A model generated the notes under the pieces. The model did not search any database. It worked only from the letters and a program-made list of their open reading frames with translations, and was not told the origin of the DNA. This document shows positions 5,159 through 63,339 of a stretch of DNA of 64,000 nucleotides, in pieces. The stretch is from contig CAKUYE010000002.1 in assembly GCA_934702375.1 (NCBI GenBank), positions 16,188 to 80,187 of the forward strand. Reading direction: 5' to 3'. The translations under genes and the position numbers were made by a program. Every line of letters begins with the position of its first letter. Position 1 is the stretch's first letter. This DNA is from an uncultured Bacillota bacterium (lineage in GTDB: Bacteria; Bacillota; Dehalobacteriia; UBA7702).

Positions 5159-5776
5159 ATGAAGTCTGAAGGACTCTTGATTGTGATATCCGGCCCCTCC
5201 GGCGTTGGCAAAGGCACCGTTTGTGCTTCTTTGCTGGAACAGCTGGAGACCCTTAAGGTCTCCTTGTCCGATACAACGCGAACGCCGCGAGCAGGTGAAA
5301 AAAACGGCATAAATTATTCCTTTATTACCAAGGAACAGTTTCTTACCAACATAGAAAACGAAGTCTATCTGGAATGGGCGGAAGTCTATGGAAATTTCTA
5401 CGGCACACCAAAAGCCGCCGTGGAAAATAATATAAAAAATGGTGTAGATACGCTCCTTGAGATCGATACTCAAGGAGCTTCTCTTGTTAAAAAACAGTAT
5501 CCCGACGGCGTGTATATCTTTATTGCACCGCCGGATTTCAAAACTCTGGAGAGTCGCCTTCGCGGTCGTAAAACCGATAGCGAAGAATCGATCCTTCGGC
5601 GTTTGAATCTGTTTCAATCGGAGATCCAGAAGATCCCCATGTACGATTACGTCGTTGTCAACGACAGCGTGGACAGCGCCGTAGAAAAGGTTCGGGCCAT
5701 CCTCACTGCGGAACATCTGCGGTTTGAACATACCCTGACCTATACAAATCTATTTTCGGAGGACGATTCATTATGA
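5159..5776 (+). CDS. gmk: Guanylate kinase
   Basis: P-loop GPSGVGKGTV. 205 aa. Conserved gmk-rpoZ synteny. Confidence 0.95.
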   Translation: MKSEGLLIVISGPSGVGKGTVCASLLEQLETLKVSLSDTTRTPRAGEKNGINYSFITKEQFLTNIENEVYLEWAEVYGNFYGTPKAAVENNIKNGVDTLLEIDTQGASLVKKQYPDGVYIFIAPPDFKTLESRLRGRKTDSEESILRRLNLFQSEIQKIPMYDYVVVNDSVDSAVEKVRAILTAEHLRFEHTLTYTNLFSEDDSL

Positions 5777-6066
5777 TGGTTGAACCCGGTATGGATGTTT
5801 TGCTTGCTCATGTCGATTCCAAATATACTTTGGCTTCGGTAAGTGCAAAACGTGCCAGAAAAATCTTAATTAATAATCGCGGCTCACTTGTGAACCCCGT
5901 GACCGTTGCTTTGCAGGAAATCGCAGATGGAAAAATCACCTGGGAACGTGAGGATGAGGAAGAACCCGAATACAATCTGACCCCGGCAGCCTCCGGTGTC
6001 GGCGGTATGATTGACCTGGATGATGACAGCGACCTGCACTCCGGAGAGGAACACGAAAATGAATAA
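5773..6066 (+). CDS. rpoZ: DNA-directed RNA polymerase subunit omega
   Basis: 97 aa. DVLLAHVDSKYTLASVSAKRARKI core motif of omega. Overlaps the gmk stop; acidic C-terminal tail. Confidence 0.85.
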   Translation: MMVEPGMDVLLAHVDSKYTLASVSAKRARKILINNRGSLVNPVTVALQEIADGKITWEREDEEEPEYNLTPAASGVGGMIDLDDDSDLHSGEEHENE

Positions 6067-7264
6067 GAAAACCATCGCCATCGGTGTCTCCGGTGGTATC
6101 GCGGCGTATAAAGTCATTGATCTTGTGAGCCGCCTGGCGAAAAAAGGCTTTCAAACTGAAGTGATTATGACAGAGGCCGCCGCAGAGCTTGTGGGGCCTT
6201 TTACTTTTGCCACAATCTCCGGCCGCCCGGTTCACACAAAAATGTTTCAGGAACAATACGGCGACCATATGGAAGTGGAGCATATTGCCATTGGCGACCG
6301 CGCCGATCTGATGGTGATCGTACCGGCTACCGCCAACATTATGGCCAAGGCCGCCCATGGGATTGCCGATGATCTGCTGTCCTCGGTGATTTTGGCGGCA
6401 GACAGCCCGGTGATGTATTTCCCGGCGATGAATACCCGGATGTGGGAAAACCCCGTAACTCAGGAAAACGTGGCAAAGCTGCGCTCCCTGGGCCATGAGG
6501 TCATTGACCCCGATGCCGGCTTCCTTGCCTGCGGAACTGCGGGAAAGGGACGTCTCGGCAGCATTGAAATGATTGAGGAAACCATCCTCAACGCCATGGC
6601 GGCTTTGGAAAAGGGCCGGGATCTGGAAGGCAAAACCGTTTTGATCTCTGCCGGCCCCACCGAAGAAGCCATTGATCCGGTACGCTGCATCACCAACCAC
6701 AGCAGCGGTAAAATGGGCTATGCTTTGGCTAAGGCGGCTTATCGTCGCGGCGCCGAAGTTCACCTTGTCAGTGGTCCGGTGGCATTGGAGCCTCCCGCCG
6801 GCGTTCATTGCTATCCGGTGCGTTCCGCACTGGAAATGAAGGCTGAAATTGATGGGCTTTACGGACAAGCCGATATTACCATTATGGCAGCGGCGGTGGC
6901 GGATTACCATGTCAAGGAGATCGCCCCTCATAAATTGAAAAAATCAGGAACCACCCTTACCCTGGAGCTGGAGCCGAATCCGGATATCCTTGCTTCTCTG
7001 GGTGCAAATAAACATGGCATTCTTGTGGGCTTTGCCGCAGAAACGCAAAATCTCAAGGAAAATGCCATGAGTAAGCTGGAAAGAAAGAATCTCGACCTCA
7101 TTGTGGCAAACAATGTAGCGAAAGAGGGCGCCGGCTTCGGCAGCGATACCAATATTGTGACGATCTACACGAAAAACGGCGCTGTCGATATTCCAAAGAT
7201 GCCAAAGGACGCATTGGCCGATGTGATCTTTGACTATATAAGAAAACAGGAGGAACAGATTTAA
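6059..7264 (+). CDS. coaBC: Bifunctional phosphopantothenoylcysteine decarboxylase / phosphopantothenate-cysteine ligase
   Basis: [18 protein letters not shown] flavoprotein N-terminus, then a CoaB ligase domain. The ORF track begins earlier at 6011; the ATG at 6059 has a GGAGAGGA RBS. Confidence 0.9.
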
Positions 7265-8418
7265 TGAGAAAACTAATTACATCCGAGTCGGTCACCGAAG
7301 GACATCCCGATAAGGTCTGCGATAAGATCGCCGATGGGATCCTCGATGCTTTGCTGGCCGAAGACCCCCAATCCCGGGTGGCCTGCGAAGTCGTTGTCAG
7401 CACCGGTATGGTGCTTGTGACCGGTGAAATTACCACTGATTGCTATGTGGATATTCCGAAGGTAGCCAGAGATACCATCAAAGAAATTGGCTACACCCGT
7501 GCAAAATATGGTTTTGACGGCGACACCTGCGCCGTTTTGACTTCTATCAAAGAACAAAGCCCCGATATTGCCATGGGGGTAAACGAATCTCAGGATGATA
7601 AATCCACCGGCGCCGGCGACCAGGGGATGATGTATGGCTATGCCAGCGATGAAACCGAAGAGCTGATGCCTATGCCCATCGTTATGGCTCATCGCCTTAC
7701 CCGCCAGCTGGCCAAGATCCGCAGAGAAGGGGTTTTGCCCTACCTCCGTCCCGATGGCAAAAGCCAGGTTACTGTGGAATATGATGATGACAAAGCCGTG
7801 CGCATTAATACCGTTGTCATTTCCACTCAGCATGATCCCGATGTAGATCACGACACCCTGGAAAAGGATATCATCGAAAAGGTCATCAAAGCGGTGCTCC
7901 CGGCAGAGCTTCTCGATGAAAAAACTATCTATCACGTCAATCCTACCGGCCGTTTTGTTATTGGCGGTCCCGTAGGGGATGCCGGTGTTACCGGTCGTAA
8001 GATTATTGTCGATACTTACGGCGGTGTGGGCCGTCACGGCGGCGGCGCTTTCTCCGGGAAGGATCCCACAAAGGTAGACCGTTCCGCTTGCTATGCCGCC
8101 CGCTACGTGGCAAAGAACATCGTTGCTGCCGGCTTGGCCCATAAATGCGAAGTTCAGGTGGCCTATGCCATTGGCATTGCCAACCCGGTTTCGGTTATGG
8201 TCGATACCTTTGGTACCGGCGTTCTTCCCGATGACCGCATCGGAGAGCTGATCAAGGAACATTTTGACCTTCGTCCCGCTGCCATCATTGACCATTTTGA
8301 CCTGCGCCGTCCTCTGTACAGTCAGGTTGCGGCCTATGGTCATTTCGGCAGAAACGATTTGGATCTGCCCTGGGAAAAAACGGATAAGGCAGAAGTATTG
8401 TCCCAATACTTAAAATAA
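7264..8418 (+). CDS. metK: S-adenosylmethionine synthetase
   Basis: [20 protein letters not shown] and [16 protein letters not shown] motifs. 384 aa. The start overlaps the coaBC stop (TAATG), so no room for an S-box leader. Confidence 0.97.
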
Positions 8419-50199: not shown

Positions 50200-50499
50200 A
50201 TGTTTAATATAAGTTTTGCCGAACTTATCGTTATATTGATTTTGGCATTTGTCATCCTCGGCCCCGATGAAATGGTAAAGGTTGCCCGGTTTTGCGGTCG
50301 TGTGGTGCGTAAGAGCAGACGTTTGCTGTGGCAGATCAAAGAATACGTGAACGATGAAGCCGCAGAAACCGGTCTGGATGAGGTGAAAAAAGCTGCTGAC
50401 GAGGTGAAAACCGCAGCGGCCGAAGCTGATATGCGCAAGGAGCTTACCCGTGGGCCAAAGAAGGCCGCCGAAAAGCCAAAGGACACGGAGGAAAATTGA
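50200..50499 (+). CDS. tatB: TatB-like (TatA/B family) Sec-independent translocase component
   Basis: MFNISFAELIVILILAFVILGPDEMVKVAR, i.e. an N-terminal TM helix plus amphipathic helix typical of TatA/B, with a charged C-terminal tail. Confidence 0.7.
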   Translation: MFNISFAELIVILILAFVILGPDEMVKVARFCGRVVRKSRRLLWQIKEYVNDEAAETGLDEVKKAADEVKTAAAEADMRKELTRGPKKAAEKPKDTEEN

Positions 50500-50515
50500 C
50501 AGCGGAGGTGCTATT

Positions 50516-52135
50516 TTGAAAAAACAGGGAAAACAAAAGAAACAACCAAATCATGAATCACCCAAGCTCACGCGCCGTCAATTTCTCGGTGTTGCTGCCG
50601 GCATCGGTGTCGCAGCGGCGGTTTCCGGCTGTGATATCGTCGATGACCCCGGAGCCGATGGCTGGCTGCCGGAGCAATATCACAATAGTAACGGTTATCC
50701 GGCTCAGGTTCGAGGGAGGGTTCCCATTGATGTGAATAACCCTTCTATTTTACGGGATGATAAAGCCTGCATTCTTTGTGGCCAATGTTTGGAGGTATGT
50801 CAGAATACCGAAACGATCTATAATTATTATGAATTGCCGGTAGTGGATGAATTTATTTGCGTGCATTGTGGCCAGTGTGCCATCAATTGTCCCAGCGGAG
50901 CTATTCGGGAGCGCAGCTATATTGACGAAGTTCGGGAGGCCCTGGCGGATCCCAACAAGGTCGTGGTGGTTGCCACTTCTCCCGGGGTTCGTGTTTCCCT
51001 TGGGGAAGAATTTGGTGCTCCCCAAGGCAAGTGGGTACAGGAGCAAATGATTACCGCTTTGCGGGAACTCGGCTTTGATTACGTGGTGAATATTGACTTC
51101 GCTTCGGATGCCACGATTATGGAAGAAGGAAGCGAGCTGGTACATCGTTTGACCCAGGGAGGTGCACTGCCTCAGTTTACTTCCTGTTGCCCCGGTTGGG
51201 TAAAATTTGTGGAGTATAATTATCCCGATTTGATTCCGAATATTTCCACTGCCAAAAGCCCTGTTGCGGAAATGGGTGCTTTGCTGAAAACATATTGGGC
51301 GAAAAAGAAGAATATTGCGCCTTCGGATATCGTGGTGGTCAATGTACCTCCCTGTACCGCAAAGAAATTTGAATTGAGCCGCCCGGAAATGAATGCCGCC
51401 CAACGTTATTGGGATGAAGAAGGCAAAAGCTACGGAAAAATGCGGGATGTGGATATCGTCCTTTCTACCCGGGAATTAGCGAAAATGATTCGGGATAAGG
51501 GGTTGGATCTCCTGCATTTGCCAAAAGGCAAGTTTGATCCCATCGTCAGTGAAGGCAGCGGCGCTGCGGTGATTTTTGCCAACAACGGCGGTGTTATGGA
51601 AGCCGCTTTGCGTACCGCCTATTATCTTGTCACCAACGAAGATCCGCCGGAATCCTTTTATCATCTGGATATGGTTCGGGATAACGATATGGATGGTTAT
51701 GCCGAAGCCAGTGTGGAGTTCCCCGGTTACGGCACCGTCCGTGTGGCTATATGTAACGGCCTTCATGCTGCCCGTACCCTTTGCGAGGAGATTCGGGCCG
51801 GGAAACGCAATGATCTGCATTTTCTGGAGGTTATGACCTGCCCCGGGGGTTGTATCGGCGGCGGCGGTCAGGCAAAAACCGTGGTTCCGCCATCGGATGT
51901 GCTTCGGGGGCATCGGATTGATTCTCTCTATGCTGCCGATGAAAGTATGGCGAAAGAACAGCGGGTCAGCTATAAAAATAAAGAGATCGCTGCTTTGTAC
52001 GATGATTTTCTCGGAAAGCCCTTGAGTGAGTTGGCAGAGAAAATCCTTCATACCACCTATACCGACCGCAGCGGTTCTATCCACACCAAGGATACTTCTG
52101 ATTATGTGGATGTTTGTATCCGTGGAAAATCCTGA
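50516..52135 (+). CDS. Tat-exported [FeFe]-hydrogenase (two ferredoxin-like 4Fe-4S clusters, H-cluster domain and a small-subunit-like C-terminal extension)
   Basis: TTG start with GGAGG RBS. Twin-arginine signal KLTRRQFLGVAAGIGVAAAVSGC. Clusters CILCGQCLEVCQ and CVHCGQCAINCP. H-cluster motifs TSCCPGW, PPCTAKKFE, VMTCPGGCIGGGG. Confidence 0.85.
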   Translation: MKKQGKQKKQPNHESPKLTRRQFLGVAAGIGVAAAVSGCDIVDDPGADGWLPEQYHNSNGYPAQVRGRVPIDVNNPSILRDDKACILCGQCLEVCQNTETIYNYYELPVVDEFICVHCGQCAINCPSGAIRERSYIDEVREALADPNKVVVVATSPGVRVSLGEEFGAPQGKWVQEQMITALRELGFDYVVNIDFASDATIMEEGSELVHRLTQGGALPQFTSCCPGWVKFVEYNYPDLIPNISTAKSPVAEMGALLKTYWAKKKNIAPSDIVVVNVPPCTAKKFELSRPEMNAAQRYWDEEGKSYGKMRDVDIVLSTRELAKMIRDKGLDLLHLPKGKFDPIVSEGSGAAVIFANNGGVMEAALRTAYYLVTNEDPPESFYHLDMVRDNDMDGYAEASVEFPGYGTVRVAICNGLHAARTLCEEIRAGKRNDLHFLEVMTCPGGCIGGGGQAKTVVPPSDVLRGHRIDSLYAADESMAKEQRVSYKNKEIAALYDDFLGKPLSELAEKILHTTYTDRSGSIHTKDTSDYVDVCIRGKS

Positions 52136-52155
52136 AGAAAGGGGAGACAAATGGA

Positions 52156-52947
52156 ATGAAAAACAGCGCTGTATTGTTTGATGTGACCAAATGCGTTGGC
52201 TGCGGCAGCTGCACCGTTGCCTGTAAGCTTTGGAATGGTCTCTCCTTTGAAGAGGGCAACGCCCATGGCTACGATGTGGAATTAAATGAAAATAACTGGA
52301 CGGTGGTAGAGTACCATTCTTTGGAAGATAAGGATGGGAAAAAGCTGCGGTTTTTGAAACAGCAGTGTATGCATTGTTTGGAGCCCAGCTGTGTTGCGGT
52401 TTGTTTTGCCAAGGCCATCCGAGTGGCGGAAAGCGGAGCTGTGGTTTACGATGCCAAAAAGTGTGTTGGCTGCCGCTATTGCATGATCGGCTGTCCTTAT
52501 GATGTACCGAAATACGAGTGGGATAAGGTGTTCCCCTCGGTGATGAAATGTCGGCTTTGCGCCGATAAGCTGGAACGAAATGAATCTCCGGCCTGTGTTT
52601 CCACTTGTCCTTCGGGAGCGCTGACCTTTGGAGATCGTGACGAGCTTTTGCAGAAGGCAAAAACAATGATTGCCGGTGATAAAAAATACATCAATTATGT
52701 CTATGGTGAAAAGGAGGGCGGCGGTACCCGCTGGCTTTATATCTCCGATGTTCCCTTTGAGGAACTGGGGCTGCCGGTGAATATTACAAAACGCTCCATT
52801 CCTTCGATGGTTCATGATTATACCAAGTGGAAACCGGGCGTTTTTGCCGGAGCTGCTGCGGTTTTTGGTGCTTTGGGGTTGTATACCCATCGCCGATTAA
52901 AGGTGGAAGCCGCCCAAAGGGAAGAGGAGGATAGCGCCGATGTTTGA
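52156..52947 (+). CDS. HybA/PsrB/NrfC-like 4x[4Fe-4S] ferredoxin subunit with a C-terminal TM anchor
   Basis: Four Cys clusters (CVGCGSCTVAC, CMHCLEPSCVAVC, CVGCRYCMIGCP, CRLC...CVSTCP). C-terminal hydrophobic helix (VFAGAAAVFGALGLY). GGGGAG RBS. Confidence 0.8.
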   Translation: MKNSAVLFDVTKCVGCGSCTVACKLWNGLSFEEGNAHGYDVELNENNWTVVEYHSLEDKDGKKLRFLKQQCMHCLEPSCVAVCFAKAIRVAESGAVVYDAKKCVGCRYCMIGCPYDVPKYEWDKVFPSVMKCRLCADKLERNESPACVSTCPSGALTFGDRDELLQKAKTMIAGDKKYINYVYGEKEGGGTRWLYISDVPFEELGLPVNITKRSIPSMVHDYTKWKPGVFAGAAAVFGALGLYTHRRLKVEAAQREEEDSADV

Positions 52948-54103
52948 TTATAACCTGCGTCTGAACAAAAAAACGACGCTCCGCTTTACTTTTGGCCGCT
53001 TGTGTCTTTTGGCTTTGGGTGGCATTGGTCTTTTGCTGATGGTCTATCGGTTGGTCAACGGCCTTGGCGCCGCAACAAATCTTTCGGATTCCTGGACGTG
53101 GGGGCTGTGGATTTATTTTGATATGATTCTCAGTGCTTTGGGTTCCTGCGGTTTTGCGGTGGGGATTCTTACTCATGTGCTTCATATCCCCAAGTATCAA
53201 CCGTTGGCTCGTCGGGCATTGCTGGTGTCCTTTTTCTGTTATCTTTTGCTTTTTCTGATTCTCTTTGCCGAGATTGGTCGCTGGGATAACTTTTACTGGA
53301 TCTTTATTTCCTTTGCCTGGTCCTCTCCTCTGTATGAGGTTTTTATCTGCTTGACGCTGTACTTTTTGGTGCAGATTGCCGAGATCGAAGAAATTTGGGT
53401 GGAACGGTACTTGCCTTTGCCCTGGCTGCAAATGATATTGAAGTATCTGATGCCCTGTGTATTTTTGGTTGCCTGTATTTTACCCTTTGGTCAGGAAGCT
53501 GCTTTGGGTGGGATTTATCTTGCCATGCCCAATAAGCTCCATACCATCTGGTATTCCCAAGCCTTGCCCTGGAATTGTTTGATTTCCGCATTTTACGGCG
53601 GACTTTGCTTTATTGCCTTGGAATACTATGGCTCCAATCGCTATTTTCGGGAAAAATCCGATACCGGAATGATCTCCTCGCTGCTTCGCATAGCCGGTGT
53701 GGTGATCGGTGTCAATCTTGTGGTTAAAATCGTTGATCTTTCGGTACGAGGTGCATGGAGCGCTGTTTTTTCCGGGCAGTATGAAAGTGTGATGTTCATT
53801 GGCGAGATCGTCGTTGGTTCTCTGATCCCTCTGCTGATACTGCTTACCCCCTTGAGAAAGGGAAAGAAAGGGCAGATTCTGGCAGCTCTTTGTGGTGTGA
53901 TCGGGATCTTATGGAATCGCTTTAATTTCATTTTTACCGGTATGGCTCGTCATGCAGGGGAAAGTTATTTCCCTTCCTTTGTGGAGTGGGGGATCGTGAT
54001 TGGGCTGATGGCCTTAATGGTGGTCATTTATATCTTTCTTGTAGAGAATCTGCCGGTGCATCGCAATAAGGACGATGAAAAACCGGAAATCGTGATTCGC
54101 TGA
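52940..54103 (+). CDS. NrfD/PsrC/HybB-family integral membrane quinone-interacting subunit
   Basis: 387 aa, about 8-10 TM helices, NrfD-like topology. Overlaps the stop of the ferredoxin subunit. Confidence 0.75.
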   Translation: MFDYNLRLNKKTTLRFTFGRLCLLALGGIGLLLMVYRLVNGLGAATNLSDSWTWGLWIYFDMILSALGSCGFAVGILTHVLHIPKYQPLARRALLVSFFCYLLLFLILFAEIGRWDNFYWIFISFAWSSPLYEVFICLTLYFLVQIAEIEEIWVERYLPLPWLQMILKYLMPCVFLVACILPFGQEAALGGIYLAMPNKLHTIWYSQALPWNCLISAFYGGLCFIALEYYGSNRYFREKSDTGMISSLLRIAGVVIGVNLVVKIVDLSVRGAWSAVFSGQYESVMFIGEIVVGSLIPLLILLTPLRKGKKGQILAALCGVIGILWNRFNFIFTGMARHAGESYFPSFVEWGIVIGLMALMVVIYIFLVENLPVHRNKDDEKPEIVIR

Positions 54104-54134
54104 TGGTTTGCATAAATTCCTAGGAGGTATTGAT

Positions 54135-54344
54135 ATGAGATTGGGTATATGGGAAATTCTCCTGATTATTGTTTTGGCGCTGATCCTTTTCGGCGGTAAA
54201 AAGCTTTCCGGTGTGGGAAAGTCTCTGGGAAAAGGGATTCGGGAGTTTAAAGAAGAAATCCATGCCGATGATGAAAAGGATGCCGGGTCGCCCAAACCCG
54301 AAGCCGCCAAAGCCGAAGATGATGACAAAGCTTCGAAGGAATAA
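54135..54344 (+). CDS. tatA: TatA (Sec-independent translocase)
   Basis: MRLGIWEILLIIVLALILFGGKKLSGVGKSLGKGIREFK, the canonical TatA N-terminus. GGAGGT RBS. The ORF track starts at an upstream in-frame ATG. Confidence 0.85.
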   Translation: MRLGIWEILLIIVLALILFGGKKLSGVGKSLGKGIREFKEEIHADDEKDAGSPKPEAAKAEDDDKASKE

Positions 54345-55073
54345 GTGGTGACGCCCTTGGATAGCGAAGTAAAACAGGCTTTTTTCGAGCACATTGCGGA
54401 GCTGCGAAAGACGTTGATTCTCTGCATTGTGACGATCCTTGCCTTTTTCATTCTTATTTTCTGCGTTTTTCAAGATACGCTGATGGATTTTTTCCTTTCC
54501 GGTGTACGCAGCATTGGTTTGGAGGTCGTTTATACGACGGTAGGCGAGGTTTGGACCACGAAGATGAAAGTTGCCTTTATGGCGGCTCTGGTGGTTTCCT
54601 TTCCCTTTACAGCTTTTTTTCTTTGGCGGTTTCTGGCCCCGGCGCTGTACCCCGGAGAAAAGAAGATTTTCAGCCTCTGCTTTTTTGCTGCGGTGTTCTT
54701 ATTTGCCCTCGGGGTTGCCTTTGCATATTTTGTGGTACTGCCCTTTACCTTGCGCTTTTTCGTAGCCTTTGGTGAAGGCACAGCCACCGCTATGCTCACC
54801 GTGAGTAAATACGTTAGTTTCCTGATCGGCTTTATTGTACCCTTTGGCTTGATTTTTCTGATGCCCCTCTGTGTGTATCTTTTAACAAAGCTTGGTATTC
54901 TTACCCCGGATGTATTAGTGCGCACCCGTCGTTATGTCCTGATCCTGCTTCTCATCGTTGCCGCGATCCTGACGCCGCCGGATGTAGTCTCACAGCTGAT
55001 GCTGTTTTTCCCAATGATGGGGTTGTGGGAGGTTGGCATCTTAATTTCCAAACGCACCTTTCGGCGGCGCTAA
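54345..55073 (+). CDS. tatC: TatC
   Basis: GTG start. 242 aa, 6 TM helices. TatC signature (FEHIAELRKTLILCIVTILAFFI...). Confidence 0.85.
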   Translation: MVTPLDSEVKQAFFEHIAELRKTLILCIVTILAFFILIFCVFQDTLMDFFLSGVRSIGLEVVYTTVGEVWTTKMKVAFMAALVVSFPFTAFFLWRFLAPALYPGEKKIFSLCFFAAVFLFALGVAFAYFVVLPFTLRFFVAFGEGTATAMLTVSKYVSFLIGFIVPFGLIFLMPLCVYLLTKLGILTPDVLVRTRRYVLILLLIVAAILTPPDVVSQLMLFFPMMGLWEVGILISKRTFRRR

Positions 55074-55482: not shown

Positions 55483-55525
55483 ATAAAGCAATTAGCCGCC
55501 TTGGTTTTTTACCTTGGCGGCCATT

Positions 55526-56248
55526 TTAGTGGTTGTTTTCTTTTCTCGTGTGGGATTGGATCCATTCCTGTACCTCGGCTTTTTTGCTTTGGCTGATCGG
55601 CAGCTTGATATTTTCGGCAAGGAAAATGTGGCTTGGTGTTACGGCTTCAATGTATCGGCAGTTTACCGCAATGGAATTGTGGATTCGCAGAAAAGGAAGG
55701 TCTTTGACGGAATCCAATAATTCACTTATCTTACCGTAAAAAATTTGGGTTTCGGTTTTTGTGTGGATATGGATGTGTCTTCCTTTGCTTTCGATATACA
55801 AAACATCTTTTGCGGTGACACGCCGAAGTTCTCGACCGGAACGAAAGGCAAAATGATTGTCGAAGCGGTGAATTAGCGTATTGCAGATAGGAAGAATTTC
55901 ATTGATATTTTTCTGTGAAATGGGTTTGATTAGAAAGTGCAGGGGGTGCATCTCAAAGAAAGGCATTACGTCGATGAGTTCTTTGGACATATAGACGATT
56001 TGAACAATATGATTTTTCTGCTCTTTACGAATATAATGGCTGATTTCCAGACCACGGTTCTCCGGAAGGGATACTTCCAGAAAAATCAAATCATACTGTT
56101 CCTCGGCCAAAGCCTGTCGCAAACCGGTTTCGGTGTAAAAAATTTCGATTGTCTCTTGAATCTGCTCTGTATGAGCCGTTTTGGTGATTTTTTCCTTTAA
56201 GTCCTGGCAGGTCATTTCATCGTCGTCACAAATAGCAATTCGAAGCAT
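55526..56248 (-). CDS. LytTR-family response regulator (AgrA/ComE/LytR-like), with no cognate kinase in the window
   Basis: Receiver domain (MLRIAICDDDE...) plus C-terminal LytTR DNA-binding domain (LYIESKGRHIHIHTKTETQIFYGKISEL). AGGAGA RBS. Confidence 0.85.
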   Translation of the reverse strand: MLRIAICDDDEMTCQDLKEKITKTAHTEQIQETIEIFYTETGLRQALAEEQYDLIFLEVSLPENRGLEISHYIRKEQKNHIVQIVYMSKELIDVMPFFEMHPLHFLIKPISQKNINEILPICNTLIHRFDNHFAFRSGRELRRVTAKDVLYIESKGRHIHIHTKTETQIFYGKISELLDSVKDLPFLRIHNSIAVNCRYIEAVTPSHIFLAENIKLPISQSKKAEVQEWIQSHTRKENNH

Positions 56249-56352
56249 GGATTCTCCTAGTATCTAAATTTAAAAAGATAAACTATAATTAGGATACCAT
56301 ACGATCCTTAAAAAAGGAATGTTTTTAATAGATTTTTAATAAATTCATTAAA

Positions 56353-56382
56353 TTATGACATCAAATCGATGATTTATGACAT
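56353..56382 (+). promoter_or_regulatory. LytTR-type binding site: two 9-bp direct repeats TTATGACAT separated by 12 bp, upstream of an extended -10
   Basis: TTATGACAT at 56353-56361 and 56374-56382 with a 12-nt spacer. TGtTATAAT about 27 nt downstream. Lies in the divergent region between the RR gene and the membrane-protein genes. Confidence 0.55.
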
Positions 56383-56530
56383 TTTGCCGCACAGACACTA
56401 CCTTTGTGTTATAATAAATTTATTAAATATATTGTGCACGATACTGTTGGAAACAGTGTTCTTTGTGAGGAAAATGATTTTGTTAGCCGTATGAGTATCT
56501 AAGATTTTATTTCTAAAAGAAGGTGATTAT

Positions 56531-57067
56531 ATGAGCGTTGGTTTTTGGATTGGCCTTTGCCGGATTTGGTCTTCGTTTATCCCCGGTTGGTTAATGGAAT
56601 TTTTTTATCACAATACGCTGTTTTTGGTGTTGGTTACCTGGGCCGTTTTTCTTTACGCGTGCAAATTTCATCGTGACTTTGCTTTTTCCAAGCCGATGCT
56701 GGTGGTCTTCCTTCTTTTTGTTGCCTTTTATTCGGTTTACTTGTTTTCGGATGCTTTGAAATATGTAGATATGCTTTTCCCCAACGAAAAGCTCCTGATT
56801 GGAAATGATATCATTGGTCTCAATGAGCGCTCTTTGCTTGTGCCGGAACCCGGGGAGTATTATCCTTCCAGATATCCTTTGGATGGAAGCTATTATAACG
56901 TAATTGAGAAAGAGATGGGAAATCGGATTGCAGATAGCATCTTTTTGCGGTTGGCAACTTCAATACCAACAGGAATTGCCTGCATTGTGTATGATTTCCT
57001 ATTTGTTGTATCCTTGGTACGCAACCGTAAGCATAGGGAAGTGAAAGGAGTGGGCAGTGATGAGTGA
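56531..57067 (+). CDS. Hypothetical integral membrane protein
   Basis: 178 aa, about 4 TM segments. GAAGGTGA RBS. AT-rich codon usage. Confidence 0.5.
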   Translation: MSVGFWIGLCRIWSSFIPGWLMEFFYHNTLFLVLVTWAVFLYACKFHRDFAFSKPMLVVFLLFVAFYSVYLFSDALKYVDMLFPNEKLLIGNDIIGLNERSLLVPEPGEYYPSRYPLDGSYYNVIEKEMGNRIADSIFLRLATSIPTGIACIVYDFLFVVSLVRNRKHREVKGVGSDE

Positions 57068-57608
57068 TCTTATTCTTTCGGTATTGCATCCTCTTGTTGT
57101 TCATTTGCCCGGTTGCAAAAACCTTGGGATTTCCTGTTCCTGGATCGTTTTTCTTGTTTTTCTTTTGAATTTGCTGGTGTTATGCTTTTCCGTTATAAAG
57201 GGACGACCTTTGTTTACTCGCTCTTTAAAGGAAACCGCAGGAGCGGAAAAAGGGATGATGGCGATGATTCTCTTAACGACTTTGGTGGAAATTGCTTTGG
57301 TTCTTGTTGTCTATCGCCTGTCCATGCGTTTTACGCAGTTGCCGATATCCTATGAGAATACAATGTACGGCGGAATCATGGGTTATTTCCAAGATCCCGA
57401 TGGCATTGAAACGCCGGCTCCGTCCTTTGGAAAACCTCGCGGATTGGACTTGGTACAAATTATCTCTGCCAATGAAAAGGAGTGGCTCTACCTTGGGTTT
57501 ATCGCGAATATCCTGTTGACCTATGTCAATTTCTTCTTTGCTTTGGTTTATTATGGATCTTGCTTTATCCGGGAGAACTTGGTAAAATGGAAGAAAAAGA
57601 ATGCTTAA
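57057..57608 (+). CDS. Hypothetical integral membrane protein
   Basis: 183 aa, about 4 TM segments. Overlaps the upstream gene by 11 nt. AAAGGAG RBS. Confidence 0.5.
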   Translation: MMSDLILSVLHPLVVHLPGCKNLGISCSWIVFLVFLLNLLVLCFSVIKGRPLFTRSLKETAGAEKGMMAMILLTTLVEIALVLVVYRLSMRFTQLPISYENTMYGGIMGYFQDPDGIETPAPSFGKPRGLDLVQIISANEKEWLYLGFIANILLTYVNFFFALVYYGSCFIRENLVKWKKKNA

Positions 57609-57734
57609 TGCTTTATTCCGGCTGCAATATCATGCAGTCGGAATTTCTTTATGGCATTTCAAGAAAAATGTCGCGAATTTATTGTACTTATGGTAAAATA
57701 GAAGAAGAATGACATGGATCAGGAGGCTCTTTTT

Positions 57735-60368
57735 ATGGCAGAGCAGGTGGAAAAAAACTTAAAAAAGCGTATCGTTCTGGGGCTTTTGGCCCATGTGGAT
57801 GCCGGTAAAACCACCCTTTCCGAAGGGCTTCTTTATCTTTCCGGTCAAATCAAAAAGGTGGGGCGAGTCGATCACGGAGATTGTTTTCTTGATACCCATG
57901 CTTTGGAGCGGGCCAGAGGAATCACCATTTTTTCCAAGCAGGCAAGGTTTTCTCTGGGTGATACGGAGATTACTCTTTTGGATACTCCGGGTCACGTTGA
58001 TTTTTCCACGGAAACCGAGCGCACCCTGAGTGTGTTGGACTATGCTGTTCTCGTTATCAGCGGCACCGACGGTGTCCAAGCCCACACCGAAACTCTTTGG
58101 CGGTTGCTGCGGAAATATCATATTCCCACTTTCTTTTTTATCAGCAAATGCGACCTCGCCCATGCCGATGGGAATAGGACTTTGGCAGAGCTGAAAGATC
58201 GGCTTTCTTCGGCCTGTATAGATCTCTCTCATGGCTTTGATCCCGAAGAGATCGCTCTTTGTGATGAAGCTTTGTTGGAGCGTTATTTCCGTACCGATAC
58301 CGTTACGGATCGTGATATTGCGGCATTGATTCGAGAGGAAAAGCTCTTCCCCTGCTTCTTTGGTTCCGGCTTGAAGTTGGAAGGGATGGAACCCCTGCTT
58401 TATGCTTTGGAGCATTATACCTTGATGCCCTCTTATTCCGAGGATTTTGGAGCGATGGTCTACAAGATCGACCGGGACGAAAAAGGAAATCGTCTTACTT
58501 ATATGAAAATCACCGGCGGCACTTTAAAGGTGCGCATGCCGGTATCTTACCTTTCTTCCCATACCCGGGAGGAGACCACGGAAAAAGTCAGCCAGCTACG
58601 GCTCTATGCCGGAGAAAAGTACAGTACCGCCGACGGAGTTTATCCCGGTACTGTCTGCGCTGTCCTGGGATTTTCGGAAACGGCTCCGGGGATGGGTTTG
58701 GGTGCTGCGGCAAACGGTGTTCCGCCGTTGTTGGAGGCCGTATTGAATTACCGCGTTGTTTTGCCTGAGGATATCGACCCCGCCGGATTTTTACCTAAGC
58801 TGCGGCTCTTGGAAGAGGAAGACCCGGCTCTTCATGTGGTATGGCAGGAATCTCTTGGAGAAATCCACCTGCGATTGATGGGAGAAGTGCAGATTGACGT
58901 TATCAAAAATCTTATTGCGGAGCGGTTTGGTGTCTCTGTGGATATTGCCGATGGCAGGATCCTTTATAAAGAAACCATCAAAGAGCCGGTGGTGGGCATT
59001 GGCCATTTTGAGCCTCTGCGCCATTATGCCGAAGTGCATTTGCTCCTGGAACCTTTGGCACCGGGCAGCGGTATTGTTTTTGACAGTAAATGTAGCGAAG
59101 ATCTTCTGGATCGTAACTGGCAAAGACTGATTCTGGGACAGTTGGCATCTCATGAGCTTATCGGTGTTCTTACCGGTTCACCTTTGACGGATCTGCGGAT
59201 CACTCTGGTGGCAGGGCGCGCCCATTTGAAACATACCGAAGGCGGCGATTTCCGTCAGGCGGCGATCCGTGCTTTGCGTCACGGACTGATGCAGGCAGAA
59301 AGTGTTCTTCTGGAACCGTATTATCACTTTGCACTGGAGCTTCCCGGGGAGTATCTGGGCCGTGGAATCCATGATATTCAGGCGATGAACGGCACCTTTG
59401 GTGCTCCTGAGGAAATTGGTGAAATGATGCTTCTCAAAGGCACGGCTCCGGTGGCTGCCATGGCCAATTACCAGACAGAGGTTTTGGCTTATACTCATGG
59501 CAAGGGGCGGCTCCGTCGGGAAATCTGCGGCTATGCTCCCTGTAAAAATGCGGCTGCCATCATCGAAACCGCCGGATATGATCCGGAGCACGATCCGGAT
59601 AATCCTGCTTTTTCCGTTTTTTGTGCCCACGGTGGCGGTTTTAACGTGCCTTGGCAGGATGTCCGGGAGTATGCTCACGTGGATAGCGGAGTAAAAACCT
59701 CTCCCGATGCCATGCCTACGCTGCCCAACCCCAAAGTTTTTGCCCGTAATCTGAATATAGACGATAAAGAACTGGAAGCGATTATGGAGCGGGAGTTTGG
59801 CCCCATCAAACGCCGCCAATATAAAAAAACGGTGGCCGATGATCGTTTTCATTCCGGTAAAAAGGTAGAGATCAAAAAAGATTATCTTATTGTAGATGGT
59901 TACAATATGATTTTTTCCTGGGAGGGATTAAAGGAGCTGGTTGATACCGATGATATGGATCTTGCCCGGCATCGCCTTATCGAATTGCTCAGTCATTATC
60001 AGGCCTTTGTTCGTTGTGAATTGGTCTGCGTTTTCGATGGATATAAAATCAAAGGAAATCCCGGAGACCACCAAACCGTTGACGGTATTCATGTGGTTTA
60101 TACTAAGGAAGGGGAGACGGCGGATCGCTATATTGAGACCTTATTAAAGGAGATCGGCAGTCACTATAATGTGCGGATTGCCACTTCCGATGCTTTGATC
60201 CAGCTTTCCGCCGTTAGCAGCGGTGTTTTGCGCATGACTGCTGGGGAACTGGAGGAGGAAATCTCCGGGGTTCAGAAAAAGTTGGCGCTATTGGTGGAGG
60301 AGCTGAACCGTAAAAATGAAAAGCTGAGAAATCGGCTGGATCTGACGGAGAAAAACGAAGGAAGATAA
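57735..60368 (+). CDS. Translational GTPase (TetM/TetO/EF-G-like, domains I-V) fused to a C-terminal YacP/Rae1-type NYN ribonuclease domain
   Basis: G1 AHVDAGKTTL, G2 RGITI, G3 DTPGH, G4 SKCD. The C-terminal ~180 aa (LIVDGYNMIF...VCVFDGY...VVYTKEGETADRYIE...VRIATSD) aligns with the B. subtilis YacP (Rae1) NYN domain. CAGGAGG RBS before ATG 57735. Confidence 0.8.
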   Translation: MAEQVEKNLKKRIVLGLLAHVDAGKTTLSEGLLYLSGQIKKVGRVDHGDCFLDTHALERARGITIFSKQARFSLGDTEITLLDTPGHVDFSTETERTLSVLDYAVLVISGTDGVQAHTETLWRLLRKYHIPTFFFISKCDLAHADGNRTLAELKDRLSSACIDLSHGFDPEEIALCDEALLERYFRTDTVTDRDIAALIREEKLFPCFFGSGLKLEGMEPLLYALEHYTLMPSYSEDFGAMVYKIDRDEKGNRLTYMKITGGTLKVRMPVSYLSSHTREETTEKVSQLRLYAGEKYSTADGVYPGTVCAVLGFSETAPGMGLGAAANGVPPLLEAVLNYRVVLPEDIDPAGFLPKLRLLEEEDPALHVVWQESLGEIHLRLMGEVQIDVIKNLIAERFGVSVDIADGRILYKETIKEPVVGIGHFEPLRHYAEVHLLLEPLAPGSGIVFDSKCSEDLLDRNWQRLILGQLASHELIGVLTGSPLTDLRITLVAGRAHLKHTEGGDFRQAAIRALRHGLMQAESVLLEPYYHFALELPGEYLGRGIHDIQAMNGTFGAPEEIGEMMLLKGTAPVAAMANYQTEVLAYTHGKGRLRREICGYAPCKNAAAIIETAGYDPEHDPDNPAFSVFCAHGGGFNVPWQDVREYAHVDSGVKTSPDAMPTLPNPKVFARNLNIDDKELEAIMEREFGPIKRRQYKKTVADDRFHSGKKVEIKKDYLIVDGYNMIFSWEGLKELVDTDDMDLARHRLIELLSHYQAFVRCELVCVFDGYKIKGNPGDHQTVDGIHVVYTKEGETADRYIETLLKEIGSHYNVRIATSDALIQLSAVSSGVLRMTAGELEEEISGVQKKLALLVEELNRKNEKLRNRLDLTEKNEGR

Positions 60369-60379
60369 AGAGGGATATC

Positions 60380-60964
60380 GTGAAAAAAGATCGTGATTAT
60401 GAGGATGATCCTTACCTGGAGGATTTTGAGGAATTTGATATTCCGGAGTTGGGCAATGTGCCGAATCCCGGTACAGTTTCTGCCGGTGAATTTAACCGCA
60501 GATTTCAAAAGAAAATCTTTACGCCGAAAGGAAAGGGAAAATATATTGTCGCCGTTGTGTTGTTGGTGCTGCTCTGTTCTGTTGCAGCCGGTTTTGGCGG
60601 TTATCGGCTGGGGTATAGCCGCAGCTTTAGTCAGGGATATGATGCCGGTTATGACGAAGGCAACGATCTTGGCTATAACGAAGGTATGGAGTTGGGCAAA
60701 GAAGATGGCTACGATGTTGGCTACGATGAAGGTTATGCCGACGGCGCCGACGGAGCCAAAAACGATGCTTACTACGGCATTTTAGATGGCGGCGGACAAG
60801 CTCAAACTGCTGGTAGCGGTGATGTCGTATACTGTACGGCTTCCGGCAGCTGCTATCATCATGAAGGTTGTTCCTATATTGCCGGGAAAAGCGGGCTGAA
60901 AACTATGTCCGAAGCCGAGGCAATCAATAGCGGCTACTCTCCCTGTAGTCGCTGTGGGAAGTAA
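60380..60964 (+). CDS. Hypothetical membrane-anchored protein with GYD/GYN repeats and a C-terminal Cys-rich (zinc-ribbon-like) motif
   Basis: GTG start. Acidic N-terminus, one TM segment, repeated (D/E)GYD(V/A)GYDEG units. C-terminal CTASGSCYHHEGC...CSRCGK. Confidence 0.5.
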   Translation: MKKDRDYEDDPYLEDFEEFDIPELGNVPNPGTVSAGEFNRRFQKKIFTPKGKGKYIVAVVLLVLLCSVAAGFGGYRLGYSRSFSQGYDAGYDEGNDLGYNEGMELGKEDGYDVGYDEGYADGADGAKNDAYYGILDGGGQAQTAGSGDVVYCTASGSCYHHEGCSYIAGKSGLKTMSEAEAINSGYSPCSRCGK

Positions 60965-61926: not shown

Positions 61927-63339
61927 ATGATGATGTCTAGAGAACAGATGATCCACAACGCAGCAATGGAAGTATTAAACGAAGTCGGGGTAAAAATTCA
62001 CAATAAAAAAGCTTGTGAAATTTATCGGGAAAATGGCATCCGTGTAGAAAACGATACTGTGTTTTTTACCGAGGAGCAGGTAATGCATTGGGTGAAAATG
62101 GCACCTTCGGAGTTTACTCTTTACGGACGGAATCCGAAATATGACATGGTGATCGGCGGTGATCATGTGAATCCTGCCCCCACCTACGGCTGTGCTTTTA
62201 TTGATGATTGGGAAGGCAACCGCCGTCGGGGCTCAATTCAGGACTATTTGAAATGCTTAAAGCTGGTTCATGCCGAAGATACCTATGATATCAATGGCGG
62301 AATCATGATCCAGCCCAGTGACATTCCCGAAGAAACCGCGGCACTGGCTATGTTTTATGCAATGCTGAAAACAACGGATAAGGTCATGATGCTTCCCACC
62401 GGTTTTAAAGATGAAATGGCGCTGATTTTAGAAGCAGGTGCTGCTATTTTCGGCGGAAAAGAAGCCATGATTGAAAAACCACGGATGATTGCCTTGATCA
62501 ATACGGTATCCCCCTTATCCCTTGATGAAAGAATGCTTGATTGTCTTATGCTCTTGGCTGAATATGGCCAGCCTGCCATTCTTTGCCCTGCTGCCATGCT
62601 TGGCGCTACCGGTTCTCTCTCCATGGCCGGAACCCTTGTCACCGGCATTGCCGAAGATCTTGCCGGCATTGCCCTTGCGCAAATGGTGCGCCCCGGCACA
62701 CCTGTTGTTCTTGGCATTCAGTCCACAGCGGCAGATATGCGCGGTGGTATTACCTTTGCTTGCGCTGCTCCGGAAGGTACTTTGATGCAGGGCTTTGCTG
62801 CGAATATGGCTAAATTCTACGGCGTCCCTTCTCGTGGCGGCGGTTGTCAGACCGATGCTCCTGTTATCAACTGCCAGGCCGGTTATGAATCGATGCTTAC
62901 CTTTTCCTCGGCTTATCGTCACGGTATCAACCTGGTAATGGAAGCCGGCGGTGTTATGGATAGCGTTAACGCTACTTCCTTTGAGAAAATGATCATCGAC
63001 TTTGAAATCATTCGTCAGGTGAAAAAAGCATTTACTCCCATTGAAGTAACGGAAGAAACCTTGAATTTGAAGGAAATCAAAGAAGTGAATTCCACCGGCA
63101 GCTATGTTATGACCGATTACACCATGTTCCATTTCAATGATCTCTATGCACCGAAAATCGGTTCCCGCAGTGCCAAAGGAGATGCTTACTTCAAGGAAAG
63201 CATTGATAAAGAAATGGATCGCCTGTTGACAGTATACGAACAAAATCGTCCCCAGGAAGCCGAAGCAATGGCAGAAGCCAGAGCAATCATCGCCAAATCC
63301 GGTATGGATATGGACAAATTAGATGCGGAAATGGAATAA
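61927..63339 (+). CDS. Trimethylamine methyltransferase (MttB) superfamily protein, non-pyrrolysine type (quaternary-amine:corrinoid methyltransferase-like)
   Basis: 470 aa. N-terminal motif (MSREQMIHNAAMEVLNEVGVKIHN) and length typical of MttB/MtgB-family proteins. No in-frame amber codon. Three consecutive ATGs leave the start ambiguous. Confidence 0.75.
   Translation: MMMSREQMIHNAAMEVLNEVGVKIHNKKACEIYRENGIRVENDTVFFTEEQVMHWVKMAPSEFTLYGRNPKYDMVIGGDHVNPAPTYGCAFIDDWEGNRRRGSIQDYLKCLKLVHAEDTYDINGGIMIQPSDIPEETAALAMFYAMLKTTDKVMMLPTGFKDEMALILEAGAAIFGGKEAMIEKPRMIALINTVSPLSLDERMLDCLMLLAEYGQPAILCPAAMLGATGSLSMAGTLVTGIAEDLAGIALAQMVRPGTPVVLGIQSTAADMRGGITFACAAPEGTLMQGFAANMAKFYGVPSRGGGCQTDAPVINCQAGYESMLTFSSAYRHGINLVMEAGGVMDSVNATSFEKMIIDFEIIRQVKKAFTPIEVTEETLNLKEIKEVNSTGSYVMTDYTMFHFNDLYAPKIGSRSAKGDAYFKESIDKEMDRLLTVYEQNRPQEAEAMAEARAIIAKSGMDMDKLDAEME

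Follow-up and report, generated by a model that had tools for sequence, protein, structure and literature searches.

A Tet-Like Translational GTPase Fused to a Rae1-Type NYN Nuclease in Bacillota: Architecture, Relatives and a Possible Role at Stalled Ribosomes

Introduction

The window analyzed here, a stretch of 64,000 nucleotides from an uncultured bacterium of the Bacillota (Dehalobacteriia; UBA7702; contig CAKUYE010000002.1), contains a gene whose product joins three parts in a single chain, namely a GTPase of a distinct Tet-like subfamily, a tether, and an NYN nuclease domain of the type found in Rae1 (YacP) of Bacillus subtilis. Both modules, the GTPase and the nuclease, look active, since the G motifs and the four acidic residues of the NYN domain are conserved. 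We give an even chance to the interpretation that the protein is a GTP-dependent factor delivering a Rae1-type nuclease to mRNA on stalled or collided ribosomes. A ribosome-targeted nuclease was also proposed in a preliminary description of this DNA, made from the sequence alone, and it is the most coherent reading.

Fusions of this kind have been catalogued before. Atkinson et al. (2015, BMC Genomics) reported fusions of Tet/TetM-like proteins with NYN_YacP in Clostridia, placed them in the Tet subfamily, and suggested that the RNase domain represents a new resistance mechanism; the sequences in their Additional file 8 come from species including Ruminococcus albus 7, Eubacterium eligens, Eubacterium rectale ATCC 33656, Butyrivibrio proteoclasticus, Clostridium cellulolyticum H10, Clostridium lentocellum, Lachnoclostridium phytofermentans, Ruminiclostridium thermocellum ATCC 27405 and Desulfitobacterium hafniense (PMC4342817). 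The same fusion architecture in Clostridia was described by Matelska et al. (2017, NAR; PMC5499597). The window protein has an identical architecture, with no structural difference, and has in common with these proteins the motifs GHFEPLRHYAEVHLLLEP, GRAH-KHTEGGDFR, SVFC-HG-G--V-W and LVDGYN; by these features it is a member of the clostridial TetM-like and NYN_YacP group already on record. Both papers listed the architecture, treated the GTPase as Tet and left the function open. The preliminary description had called the architecture both uncharacterized and unrecognized; the latter does not hold in view of these two papers, while the former stands, as no experimental study of the fusion was found in a literature search that had most subscription journals outside its reach. 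Recent papers on Rae1 and YlmH mention neither the fusion nor a linkage to ylmH. What appears to be new is that the GTPase stands apart from genuine Tet proteins, that unfused relatives exist, that the tether and its helix motif are conserved, and that a linkage to ylmH recurs.

Two Conserved Modules Joined by a Tether

The nuclease part is recognized as Pfam NYN_YacP (PF05991) over residues 725–879, with E = 6.3e-43 and 147.1 bits against a cut-off of 24.6, and the match covers profile positions 1–157 of 166 (residue numbers throughout follow the 884-residue form of the fusion protein, translated from an upstream in-frame ATG). It aligns with chain residues 2–152 of the crystal structures of B. 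subtilis YacP/Rae1, 5MQ8 and 5MQ9, at E = 1e-20, with ~35–40% of the aligned residues identical. Four aspartates, D728 (in IVDGYN), D775 (VFDG), D804 (ETAD) and D826 (TSD), do not vary among 54 aligned homologues, and in 71 full-length representatives of greater distance (38–53% identity) their conservation is 95% or more. In the alignment with 5MQ8/5MQ9, D728 and D804 correspond to D7 and D81 of Rae1, and the double mutant Rae1 D7N D81N has been published as catalytically dead (PMC10351889). The full-length AlphaFold2 model predicts the NYN core with confidence. Rae1 has in common with the window protein both the NYN_YacP fold and the C-terminal helix; however, it is a stand-alone protein of 170 amino acids encoded in the operon gltX-cysS-mrnC-yacO(rlmB)-yacP, whereas the NYN domain of the window is a tethered module of an 877-residue GTPase. 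Genes of the cysS-mrnC-rlmB operon were not found near the fusion in the window or in 33 related loci. No structure of the fusion is available in the Protein Data Bank (PDB), whose relevant entries are limited to EF-G/Tet chains and YacP on its own.

The N-terminal body carries the features that define the translational GTPase superfamily, namely motifs G1–G4, a histidine following DxxG, and domains II–V (Table 1). In homologue alignments the G1–G4 motifs, including the catalytic histidine of DTPGH, are invariant across the family, and a Foldseek search with the AlphaFold model returned EF-G-type chains only. Domain IV includes a family-specific tip loop that is kept in fused and unfused members alike. 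In the Agathobacter rectalis protein (locus L024, 7102–9903), a T/A/D-rich insertion of ~26 residues lies in the G domain, between switch I and DTPGH.

Domain V is followed by a C-terminal element, conserved in fused and unfused members (family pattern GYDPE-D--NP--SVFC-HG-G--V-W------MH) and without a counterpart in the aligned Tet(O), TetB(P) and Otr(A)-like sequences. Its predicted local distance difference test score (pLDDT) is 81–86 in the full-length model and 66 when the element is modelled alone, and it probably packs on the GTPase body. C610, C637, H639 and H655, which lie within the element or shortly ahead of it, are conserved across the family, and C610, C637 and H655 are also present in unfused members; the four residues could form a candidate metal (zinc) site. 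Residues 614–722 gave no sequence match in Pfam, NCBIfam or PDB. Measured from the conserved Trp of the element to DGYN, the tether spans 70–202 residues (median 78) in 178 full-length members, and 147 of these contain the helix motif E-L-x-x-I-[MF]-x-R-x-[FY]-G. In A. rectalis, the tether is much longer than in the window protein.

Several claims of the preliminary description are borne out, namely a GTPase with G1–G4 and a five-domain body, a YacP/Rae1-type NYN domain with intact motifs at the C-terminus, and a single frame with no frameshift between the domains, the fused form being one open reading frame (ORF) that recurs in independent genomes.

The GTPase Compared with Tetracycline Resistance Proteins and EF-G

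The GTPase had been taken to be of the TetM type, and here the curated scores, loop III and the tree point instead to a distinct subfamily. Among NCBIfam models it matches tet_protect (NF012153) best, with an end-to-end alignment of residues 21–607 that scores 402.4 bits against a cut-off of 775, while the TetM/W/O/S model (NF033148) gives 274 bits against 1100. The EF-G models reach 262 bits against 659 (TIGR00484) and 303 against 583 (NF009381), with the alignment split into two stretches. Five relatives, including the fused proteins of A. rectalis and Monoglobus pectinilyticus as well as unfused ones, score 365–422 bits on NF012153 and also remain below its cut-off. In NCBIfam, the fusion protein passes no model except the generic small_GTP domain, and there is none for its C-terminal half. 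In direct comparison, the N-terminal 660 residues match Tet(O) at 249 bits and EF-G at ~234 bits, which is a near tie, and the alignment is continuous to Tet(O) and in two stretches to EF-G.

In Tet(M), no loop matters more for function than loop III of domain IV, which is held responsible for displacing tetracycline (PMC4750697). The tip loop of the family aligns to 'GLYYSPVSTPADFR' of Tet(O) but lacks SP[VM][ST]. Loop III reads YYSPVSTPADFR in Tet(O), FFSPMSTPADFR in TetB(P) and YSSPVTTAGDFR in the Otr(A)-like protein, and GRAHLKHTEGGDFR in the window protein; the family has 'RAHLKHTEGGDFR' at this position, with the family pattern RAH-KHTEGGDFR, and the Tet-type loop III (…SP[VM][ST]T..DFR) is not found in the window protein. 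Over 630 aligned GTPase columns, identity is 44–55% within the family and 27–33% to Tet(O), TetB(P) and the Otr(A)-like protein, and a neighbour-joining tree (no bootstrap) gives a family clade that excludes the three Tet references. Judged by these sequence characters, the GTPase is a distinct Tet-like/EF-G-like subfamily and not a genuine Tet protein. Tet(M) and Tet(O) share with it the five-domain EF-G-like body and provide its best match among curated hidden Markov models; they differ in that the window protein falls below every Tet cut-off, is chromosomal, and carries an additional nuclease, and where Tet proteins have a short C-terminal extension, it has a different element of ~45 residues.

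RefSeq, through PGAP, names several members (A. rectalis WP_306784676.1, Ligilactobacillus salivarius) 'TetM/TetW/TetO/TetS family tetracycline resistance ribosomal protection protein'. Members so named score about half of the curated Tet cut-off, and the naming is, on these scores, likely to be an over-annotation.

Distribution of the Family and Its Unfused Relatives

A first homologue search yielded at least 120 clusters of 844–884 amino acids, all with PF05991 fused to GTPase domains. With residues 612–884 as the query, 2839 representatives were obtained (50% clustering, E ≤ 0.001), 302 of them at E ≤ 1e-30; full-length representatives have 832–1156 amino acids, and 71 full-length ones are present at 50% identity. 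Stand-alone 'linker + NYN' proteins were considered as a candidate class and rejected, as these short matches begin at an internal Met of the fusion sequence and represent shortened gene calls. A scan of species-representative genomes gave 23 loci, most of them fused ORFs of 825–1002 amino acids, with two that appear interrupted and two that end at a contig edge; they span Oscillospiraceae, Faecousia, Anaerovoracaceae, Acetatifactor, Waltera, Erysipelotrichaceae and Eubacterium. All named relatives are Bacillota, belonging to Oscillospiraceae, Lachnospiraceae, Anaerovoracaceae, Monoglobaceae and Eubacterium among the Clostridia, together with one metagenome-assembled genome of the Erysipelotrichaceae. 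In RefSeq, the fusion occurs in the cultured species A. rectalis (933 amino acids) and M. pectinilyticus (862 amino acids; WP_320690501.1). At locus L011 (8168–10759) the fusion ORF is split at ~9748/9758, and at L019 (~5500–7982) two NYN pieces lie in different frames; these interrupted ORFs could be pseudogenes or assembly errors.

The subfamily also exists without the nuclease. Among G-domain relatives in a plasmid collection, the closest after Monoglobus are proteins of 644 amino acids from megaplasmids of L. salivarius, at 50–52% identity, and genuine Tet(O) reaches only ~40% in the same search. Three unfused proteins, from L. salivarius, Paenibacillus cellulosilyticus and Subdoligranulum variabile (~644–660 amino acids), have the family domain IV loop and the C-terminal element and end a few residues past the final 'MH'; in the neighbour-joining tree (no bootstrap) they nest among the fusions. 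These 'translation factor GTPase family' proteins are thus of the same subfamily as the window GTPase, at 44–53% identity, but have neither tether nor NYN domain. In P. cellulosilyticus, an unfused GTPase and a separate YacP are found in one 2.7-Mb record, and in each fetched locus piece the only NYN domain detected by local searches is the fusion's own. The unfused gene of L. salivarius has as neighbours a paralogue of rpsN (S14) and a gene for a 'putative metal homeostasis protein'.

Linkage to ylmH and Chromosomal Context

Of the 33 loci with enough sequence, 10 have a ylmH homologue immediately downstream of the fusion gene and in the same orientation. YlmH_RBD scored above the Pfam threshold in all six homologues tested, and the S4 domain in three of the six. 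The ylmH gene overlaps the fusion stop codon by 1–13 nt in L004, L005, L031/L032 and L035, and is separated from it by 4 nt in L012 and by 57–214 nt in L013, L019 and L034; in L010 and L011, the weakest cases, it lies ~870 nt downstream. The fusion proteins of the ylmH-linked loci are 57–63% identical when three near-duplicate pairs are set aside, and their upstream genes differ. With near-duplicates collapsed, the linkage is present in about seven lineages, all apparently Oscillospiraceae-like Clostridia; it is real but may be clade-limited. YlmH is a factor of ribosome-associated quality control (RQC) that binds peptidyl-tRNA–50S complexes.

At locus L030 (106–9798; a 2.65-Mb genome with a fusion 62% identical to that of the window), the order hydrogenase-NrfD-TatA-TatC…MttB-fusion is syntenic with the window, and at L033 the order is TatA-TatC-fusion-small ORF. 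The retention of parts of the window's gene order at these two loci indicates vertical chromosomal inheritance of the fusion gene. Records examined among those labelled as mobile, that is, two 'plasmids' and one of two 'Bacteriophage sp.' scaffolds, carry housekeeping genes. PADLOC gave no defence match for the fusion or three neighbouring proteins, and a scan of viral contigs found no relative, at the low sensitivity of exact peptide patterns drawn from one protein. The fusion gene is chromosomal and does not reside on mobile or defence elements. Loci L024 (NZ_CP143948.1), L025 (NZ_OY725736.1) and L029 (MT835563.1) contain map, secA, prfB and a DAP epimerase gene and look chromosomal; the 'plasmid' records L024, L025 and L028 (OY725836.1; unannotated there) measure 251 kb, 518 kb and 155 kb, and the second 'phage' record is MT835514.1.

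Possible Function and Alternative Explanations

EF-G-family GTPases bind the ribosomal factor site, and their domain IV reaches the decoding centre. Rae1 cuts mRNA upstream of stalled ribosomes in a translation-dependent manner, and the model of cleavage in the A site, on which the preliminary description relied, was a docking hypothesis of 2017 that its own authors have since replaced (PMC12407103). Rae1 is also needed for collision-induced tagging by transfer-messenger RNA (tmRNA), generating tmRNA substrates on collided ribosomes (PMC13622287). In the mechanism proposed for the fusion, where binding to the ribosome, the kind of RNA attacked, the cleavage site and the trigger in the cell are all inferred, the GTP-bound five-domain body would bind the factor site of a stalled or collided ribosome, and domain IV together with the C-terminal element would reach towards the decoding centre; the conserved, family-specific tip loop is the pattern expected of a decoding-centre reader that does not displace tetracycline. 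Cleavage of the mRNA by the tethered nuclease would follow, not in the A site but at the ribosome's edge. The A site would not accommodate both the GTPase body and the nuclease. A conserved flexible tether of 70 residues or more suits a nuclease that acts on mRNA at the periphery. If the GTPase were to sit on the trailing ribosome of a collided pair, the incoming mRNA would be the stretch leaving the stalled leader, where Rae1 cuts. Trans-translation or the RQC pathway (RqcH/YlmH) could then free the ribosomes trapped on the truncated message, while GTP hydrolysis would release the factor and, more speculatively, might help to split the ribosome; such a role is possible in that the RQC branch, to which the linkage with ylmH points, requires ribosomes that have been split. 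A fuller version, in which the protein is a self-contained sensor and effector of collisions or stalls that cuts mRNA, may split the ribosome and feeds YlmH/RqcH, is doubtful. MutS2 of B. subtilis and SmrB of Escherichia coli offer an analogy of logic only, in that a sensor of ribosome state is combined with an endonuclease upstream of tmRNA or RQC rescue; they are not homologous, since they have SMR nuclease domains, and in MutS2 an ABC-type ATPase clamp, while Pfam finds no SMR domain in the window protein.

Several observations weigh against delivery of the nuclease to mRNA on stalled ribosomes. All-against-all clustering of neighbours at 24 loci showed nothing common beyond close relatives, ylmH excepted, and ylmH itself is missing next to the fusion in the window and at two of every three loci, so the linkage could reflect synteny inherited within the Oscillospiraceae lineage. 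The basic job of the GTPase subfamily would need no RNA cleavage, because the same subfamily exists without the nuclease. The full-length AlphaFold2 model has a predicted template modelling score (pTM) of 0.50, at which the relative placement of domains is unreliable, so the argument from geometry is qualitative. A published functional study of the fusion, likewise, was not among the results of the literature search described above.

The target of the nuclease might instead be rRNA, with the protein acting in ribosome assembly or maturation, or inactivating or degrading defective or idle ribosomes near the factor-binding site. YacP was first predicted to function in rRNA/tRNA processing from its operon with mrnC and rlmB (PMC5499597), one unfused relative stands beside the rpsN paralogue on an L. 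salivarius megaplasmid, and the tether would let the nuclease reach rRNA; but Rae1, the sole characterized YacP-type enzyme, cuts mRNA translation-dependently, the recurrent partner is an RQC factor and not an assembly factor, and the compared loci show no recurrent rRNA-processing genes nearby, which makes this alternative unlikely. That the protein protects ribosomes from tetracycline, with the RNase domain adding a new resistance mechanism, would agree with the end-to-end tet_protect match, the PGAP name of the A. rectalis member and the placement by Atkinson et al., and yet we regard it as very unlikely, as the window protein and its fused and unfused relatives score far below the Tet cut-offs, loop III is replaced, the clade excludes the Tet references to which its identity is low, and the gene lies on the chromosome among housekeeping genes and not on mobile elements.

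A toxin or anti-phage effector that halts translation by triggered RNA cutting on ribosomes, an option also raised in the preliminary description, would suit a nuclease–NTPase fusion, which is a common defence architecture, and a BrnT/CopG toxin–antitoxin pair does lie upstream in A. rectalis. Such a role is nevertheless highly improbable, given the negative PADLOC result, the lack of a recurrent antitoxin-like or immunity partner in the 24-locus comparison, the syntenic housekeeping context, the high sequence conservation over hundreds of clusters, and the low-sensitivity viral scan without a relative, one of the two 'phage' records being bacterial housekeeping DNA. Equally improbable is a purely GTPase function with the NYN domain as a catalytically silent ribosome- or RNA-binding appendage: the unfused members imply that the GTPase can work without a nuclease, but four acidic residues that are invariant or nearly so at 38–53% overall identity are unexpected in a dead nuclease. 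As for an artefact of sequencing or assembly that joined two genes, its probability is negligible, since there is a single frame without a stop, the linker has conserved motifs of its own, and the same fused ORF recurs across hundreds of assemblies made independently and is also present in the finished genomes of species in culture.

Gene Features and Neighbouring Genes in the Window

The fusion gene is one uninterrupted ORF that extends upstream to an in-frame ATG at 57714 (57714..60368, +, 884 amino acids). The start at 57735 is preferred because of GGAGG at a spacing of 8 nt and because P0001, a homologue 97% identical to the window's fusion protein, has 877 amino acids; 57735..60368 is therefore likely to be the true extent of the gene. 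The hairpin upstream (Table 1) would suggest that transcription of the fusion gene begins separately from that of the gene before it, although terminator-like sites were no more frequent in this region than in shuffled sequence. The small ORF downstream of the fusion may be co-transcribed with it. Its product has an acidic N-terminus, one transmembrane segment, GYD-rich repeats and a C-terminal Y-H-x3-C…C-x2-C motif, and Pfam gave no convincing match for it. It is 43% identical to the ORF in the same position at L033 (6602–7096), the gap after the fusion stop being 12–13 nt; no counterpart was found in the other compared loci, so that it is limited to close relatives.

The neighbours in the window are a LytTR response regulator, two unannotated membrane proteins, the small Cys-motif membrane protein, a TetR regulator and MttB. 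A conserved operon with LytTR, the two membrane proteins and TetR was considered and rejected, as the 24-locus comparison shows that these are not family features; other small clusters of neighbours are housekeeping genes (aldolase, flavodiiron protein, Spo0A, GNAT). The preliminary description had cited the LytTR neighbour and an AT-richer stretch as context. That stretch (GC 0.37–0.43, ~55500–57500) lies upstream and comprises the LytTR and membrane genes, not the fusion, whose GC of 0.45–0.52 is similar to the remainder of the window; region 55526–57608 may form a small module of its own with no relation to the fusion.

Table 1. Coordinates of the fusion gene, its domains and motifs, neighbouring genes, and related genes at other loci
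Feature	Location	Coordinates	Strand	Basis or remark
GTPase-NYN fusion coding sequence	window	57735..60368	+	877 amino acids; start is Met8 of 884-residue numbering; single ORF
Shine-Dalgarno GGAGG	window	57722..57726	+	8 nt before ATG 57735; direct sequence reading
Terminator-like hairpin with T-rich tail	window	57615..57644	+	just past upstream gene; consensus scan only
G domain, residues 19-235	window	57768..58418	+	Pfam GTP_EFTU, E = 5.9e-48
P-loop (G1) AHVDAGKTT	window	57789-57815	+	sequence reading
Switch I RGITI	window	57915-57929	+	sequence reading
DTPGH with catalytic His94	window	57981-57995	+	sequence reading
G4 SKCD	window	58143-58154	+	sequence reading
EF-G-type domains II and III, residues 245-411	window	58446..58946	+	Pfam EF-G_D2 245-323, EFG_III 362-411
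Domain IV, residues 414-528	window	58953..59297	+	Pfam EFG_IV
Family-specific tip loop of domain IV GRAHLKHTEGGDFRQ	window	59214-59258	+	alignment; domain IV also holds the GHFEPLRHYAEVHLLLEP block
Domain V, residues 531-613	window	59304..59552	+	Pfam EFG_C
C610; C637; H639; H655	window	59541-59543; 59622-59624; 59628-59630; 59676-59678		conserved across family
Family-specific C-terminal element, residues 614-655	window	59553..59678	+	GYDPE-D--NP--SVFCAHGGG--VPW------H
Flexible tether, residues 656-722	window	59679..59879	+	E/R/K/P-rich; pLDDT 37-55
Conserved tether helix motif DDKELEAIMEREFG	window	59760-59801	+	motif conservation
NYN nuclease core, residues 723-842	window	59880..60239	+	Pfam NYN_YacP; aligns to 5MQ8/5MQ9
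Acidic residues D728; D775; D804; D826	window	59895-59897; 60036-60038; 60123-60125; 60189-60191	+
Long C-terminal helix, residues 843-884	window	60240..60365	+	AlphaFold2 helix 843-882; Pfam match to 879
Small downstream ORF	window	60380..60964	+	194 amino acids, 12 nt past fusion stop
[FeFe] hydrogenase, ferredoxin-like, NrfD, TatA, TatC cluster	window	50450-55073		upstream
LytTR-type response regulator and membrane ORFs	window	55526-57608	LytTR on minus strand	no adjacent histidine kinase
Overlapping unannotated membrane-protein ORFs	window	56531-57067, 57057-57608
MttB-family methyltransferase	window	61927-63339
ylmH	L004	10262-11008
ylmH	L005	3114-3482
ylmH	L012	10763-11506
ylmH	L013	~10891
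ylmH	L019	8157-8942
ylmH	L031/L032	12564-13316
ylmH	L034	6592-7191
ylmH	L035	6585-7331
Unfused L. salivarius pMP118 WP_164920261.1	L026	5992-7926		no NYN
Unfused P. cellulosilyticus ORF	L027	4956-6965		no NYN
Unfused S. variabile ORF	L028	4962-6968		no NYN

Conclusions

The means by which bacteria detect ribosomes that have stalled or collided, and by which Rae1 comes to be recruited there, are questions of current interest, and the two key Rae1 papers date from 2025 and 2026. Rae1 fused to a GTPase of the factor site points to a concrete route of recruitment and to a testable class of partners. The observations made here, together with these recent findings on Rae1, make the fusion family a good experimental target, and experiments should be feasible, as the family is abundant in human-gut and cellulolytic Clostridia with cultured hosts such as Acetivibrio thermocellus, C. 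cellulolyticum, L. phytofermentans and A. rectalis. The naming of some of its members as Tet proteins could inflate resistome counts in gut metagenomes. Taken as a 'Rosetta stone', the fusion would predict that stand-alone Rae1 elsewhere in the Firmicutes works with a translational GTPase, either an unfused member of the subfamily or EF-G. If the fuller version of the proposed mechanism were true, gut and cellulolytic Clostridia would have in these proteins a functional equivalent of MutS2 that is based on a GTPase.

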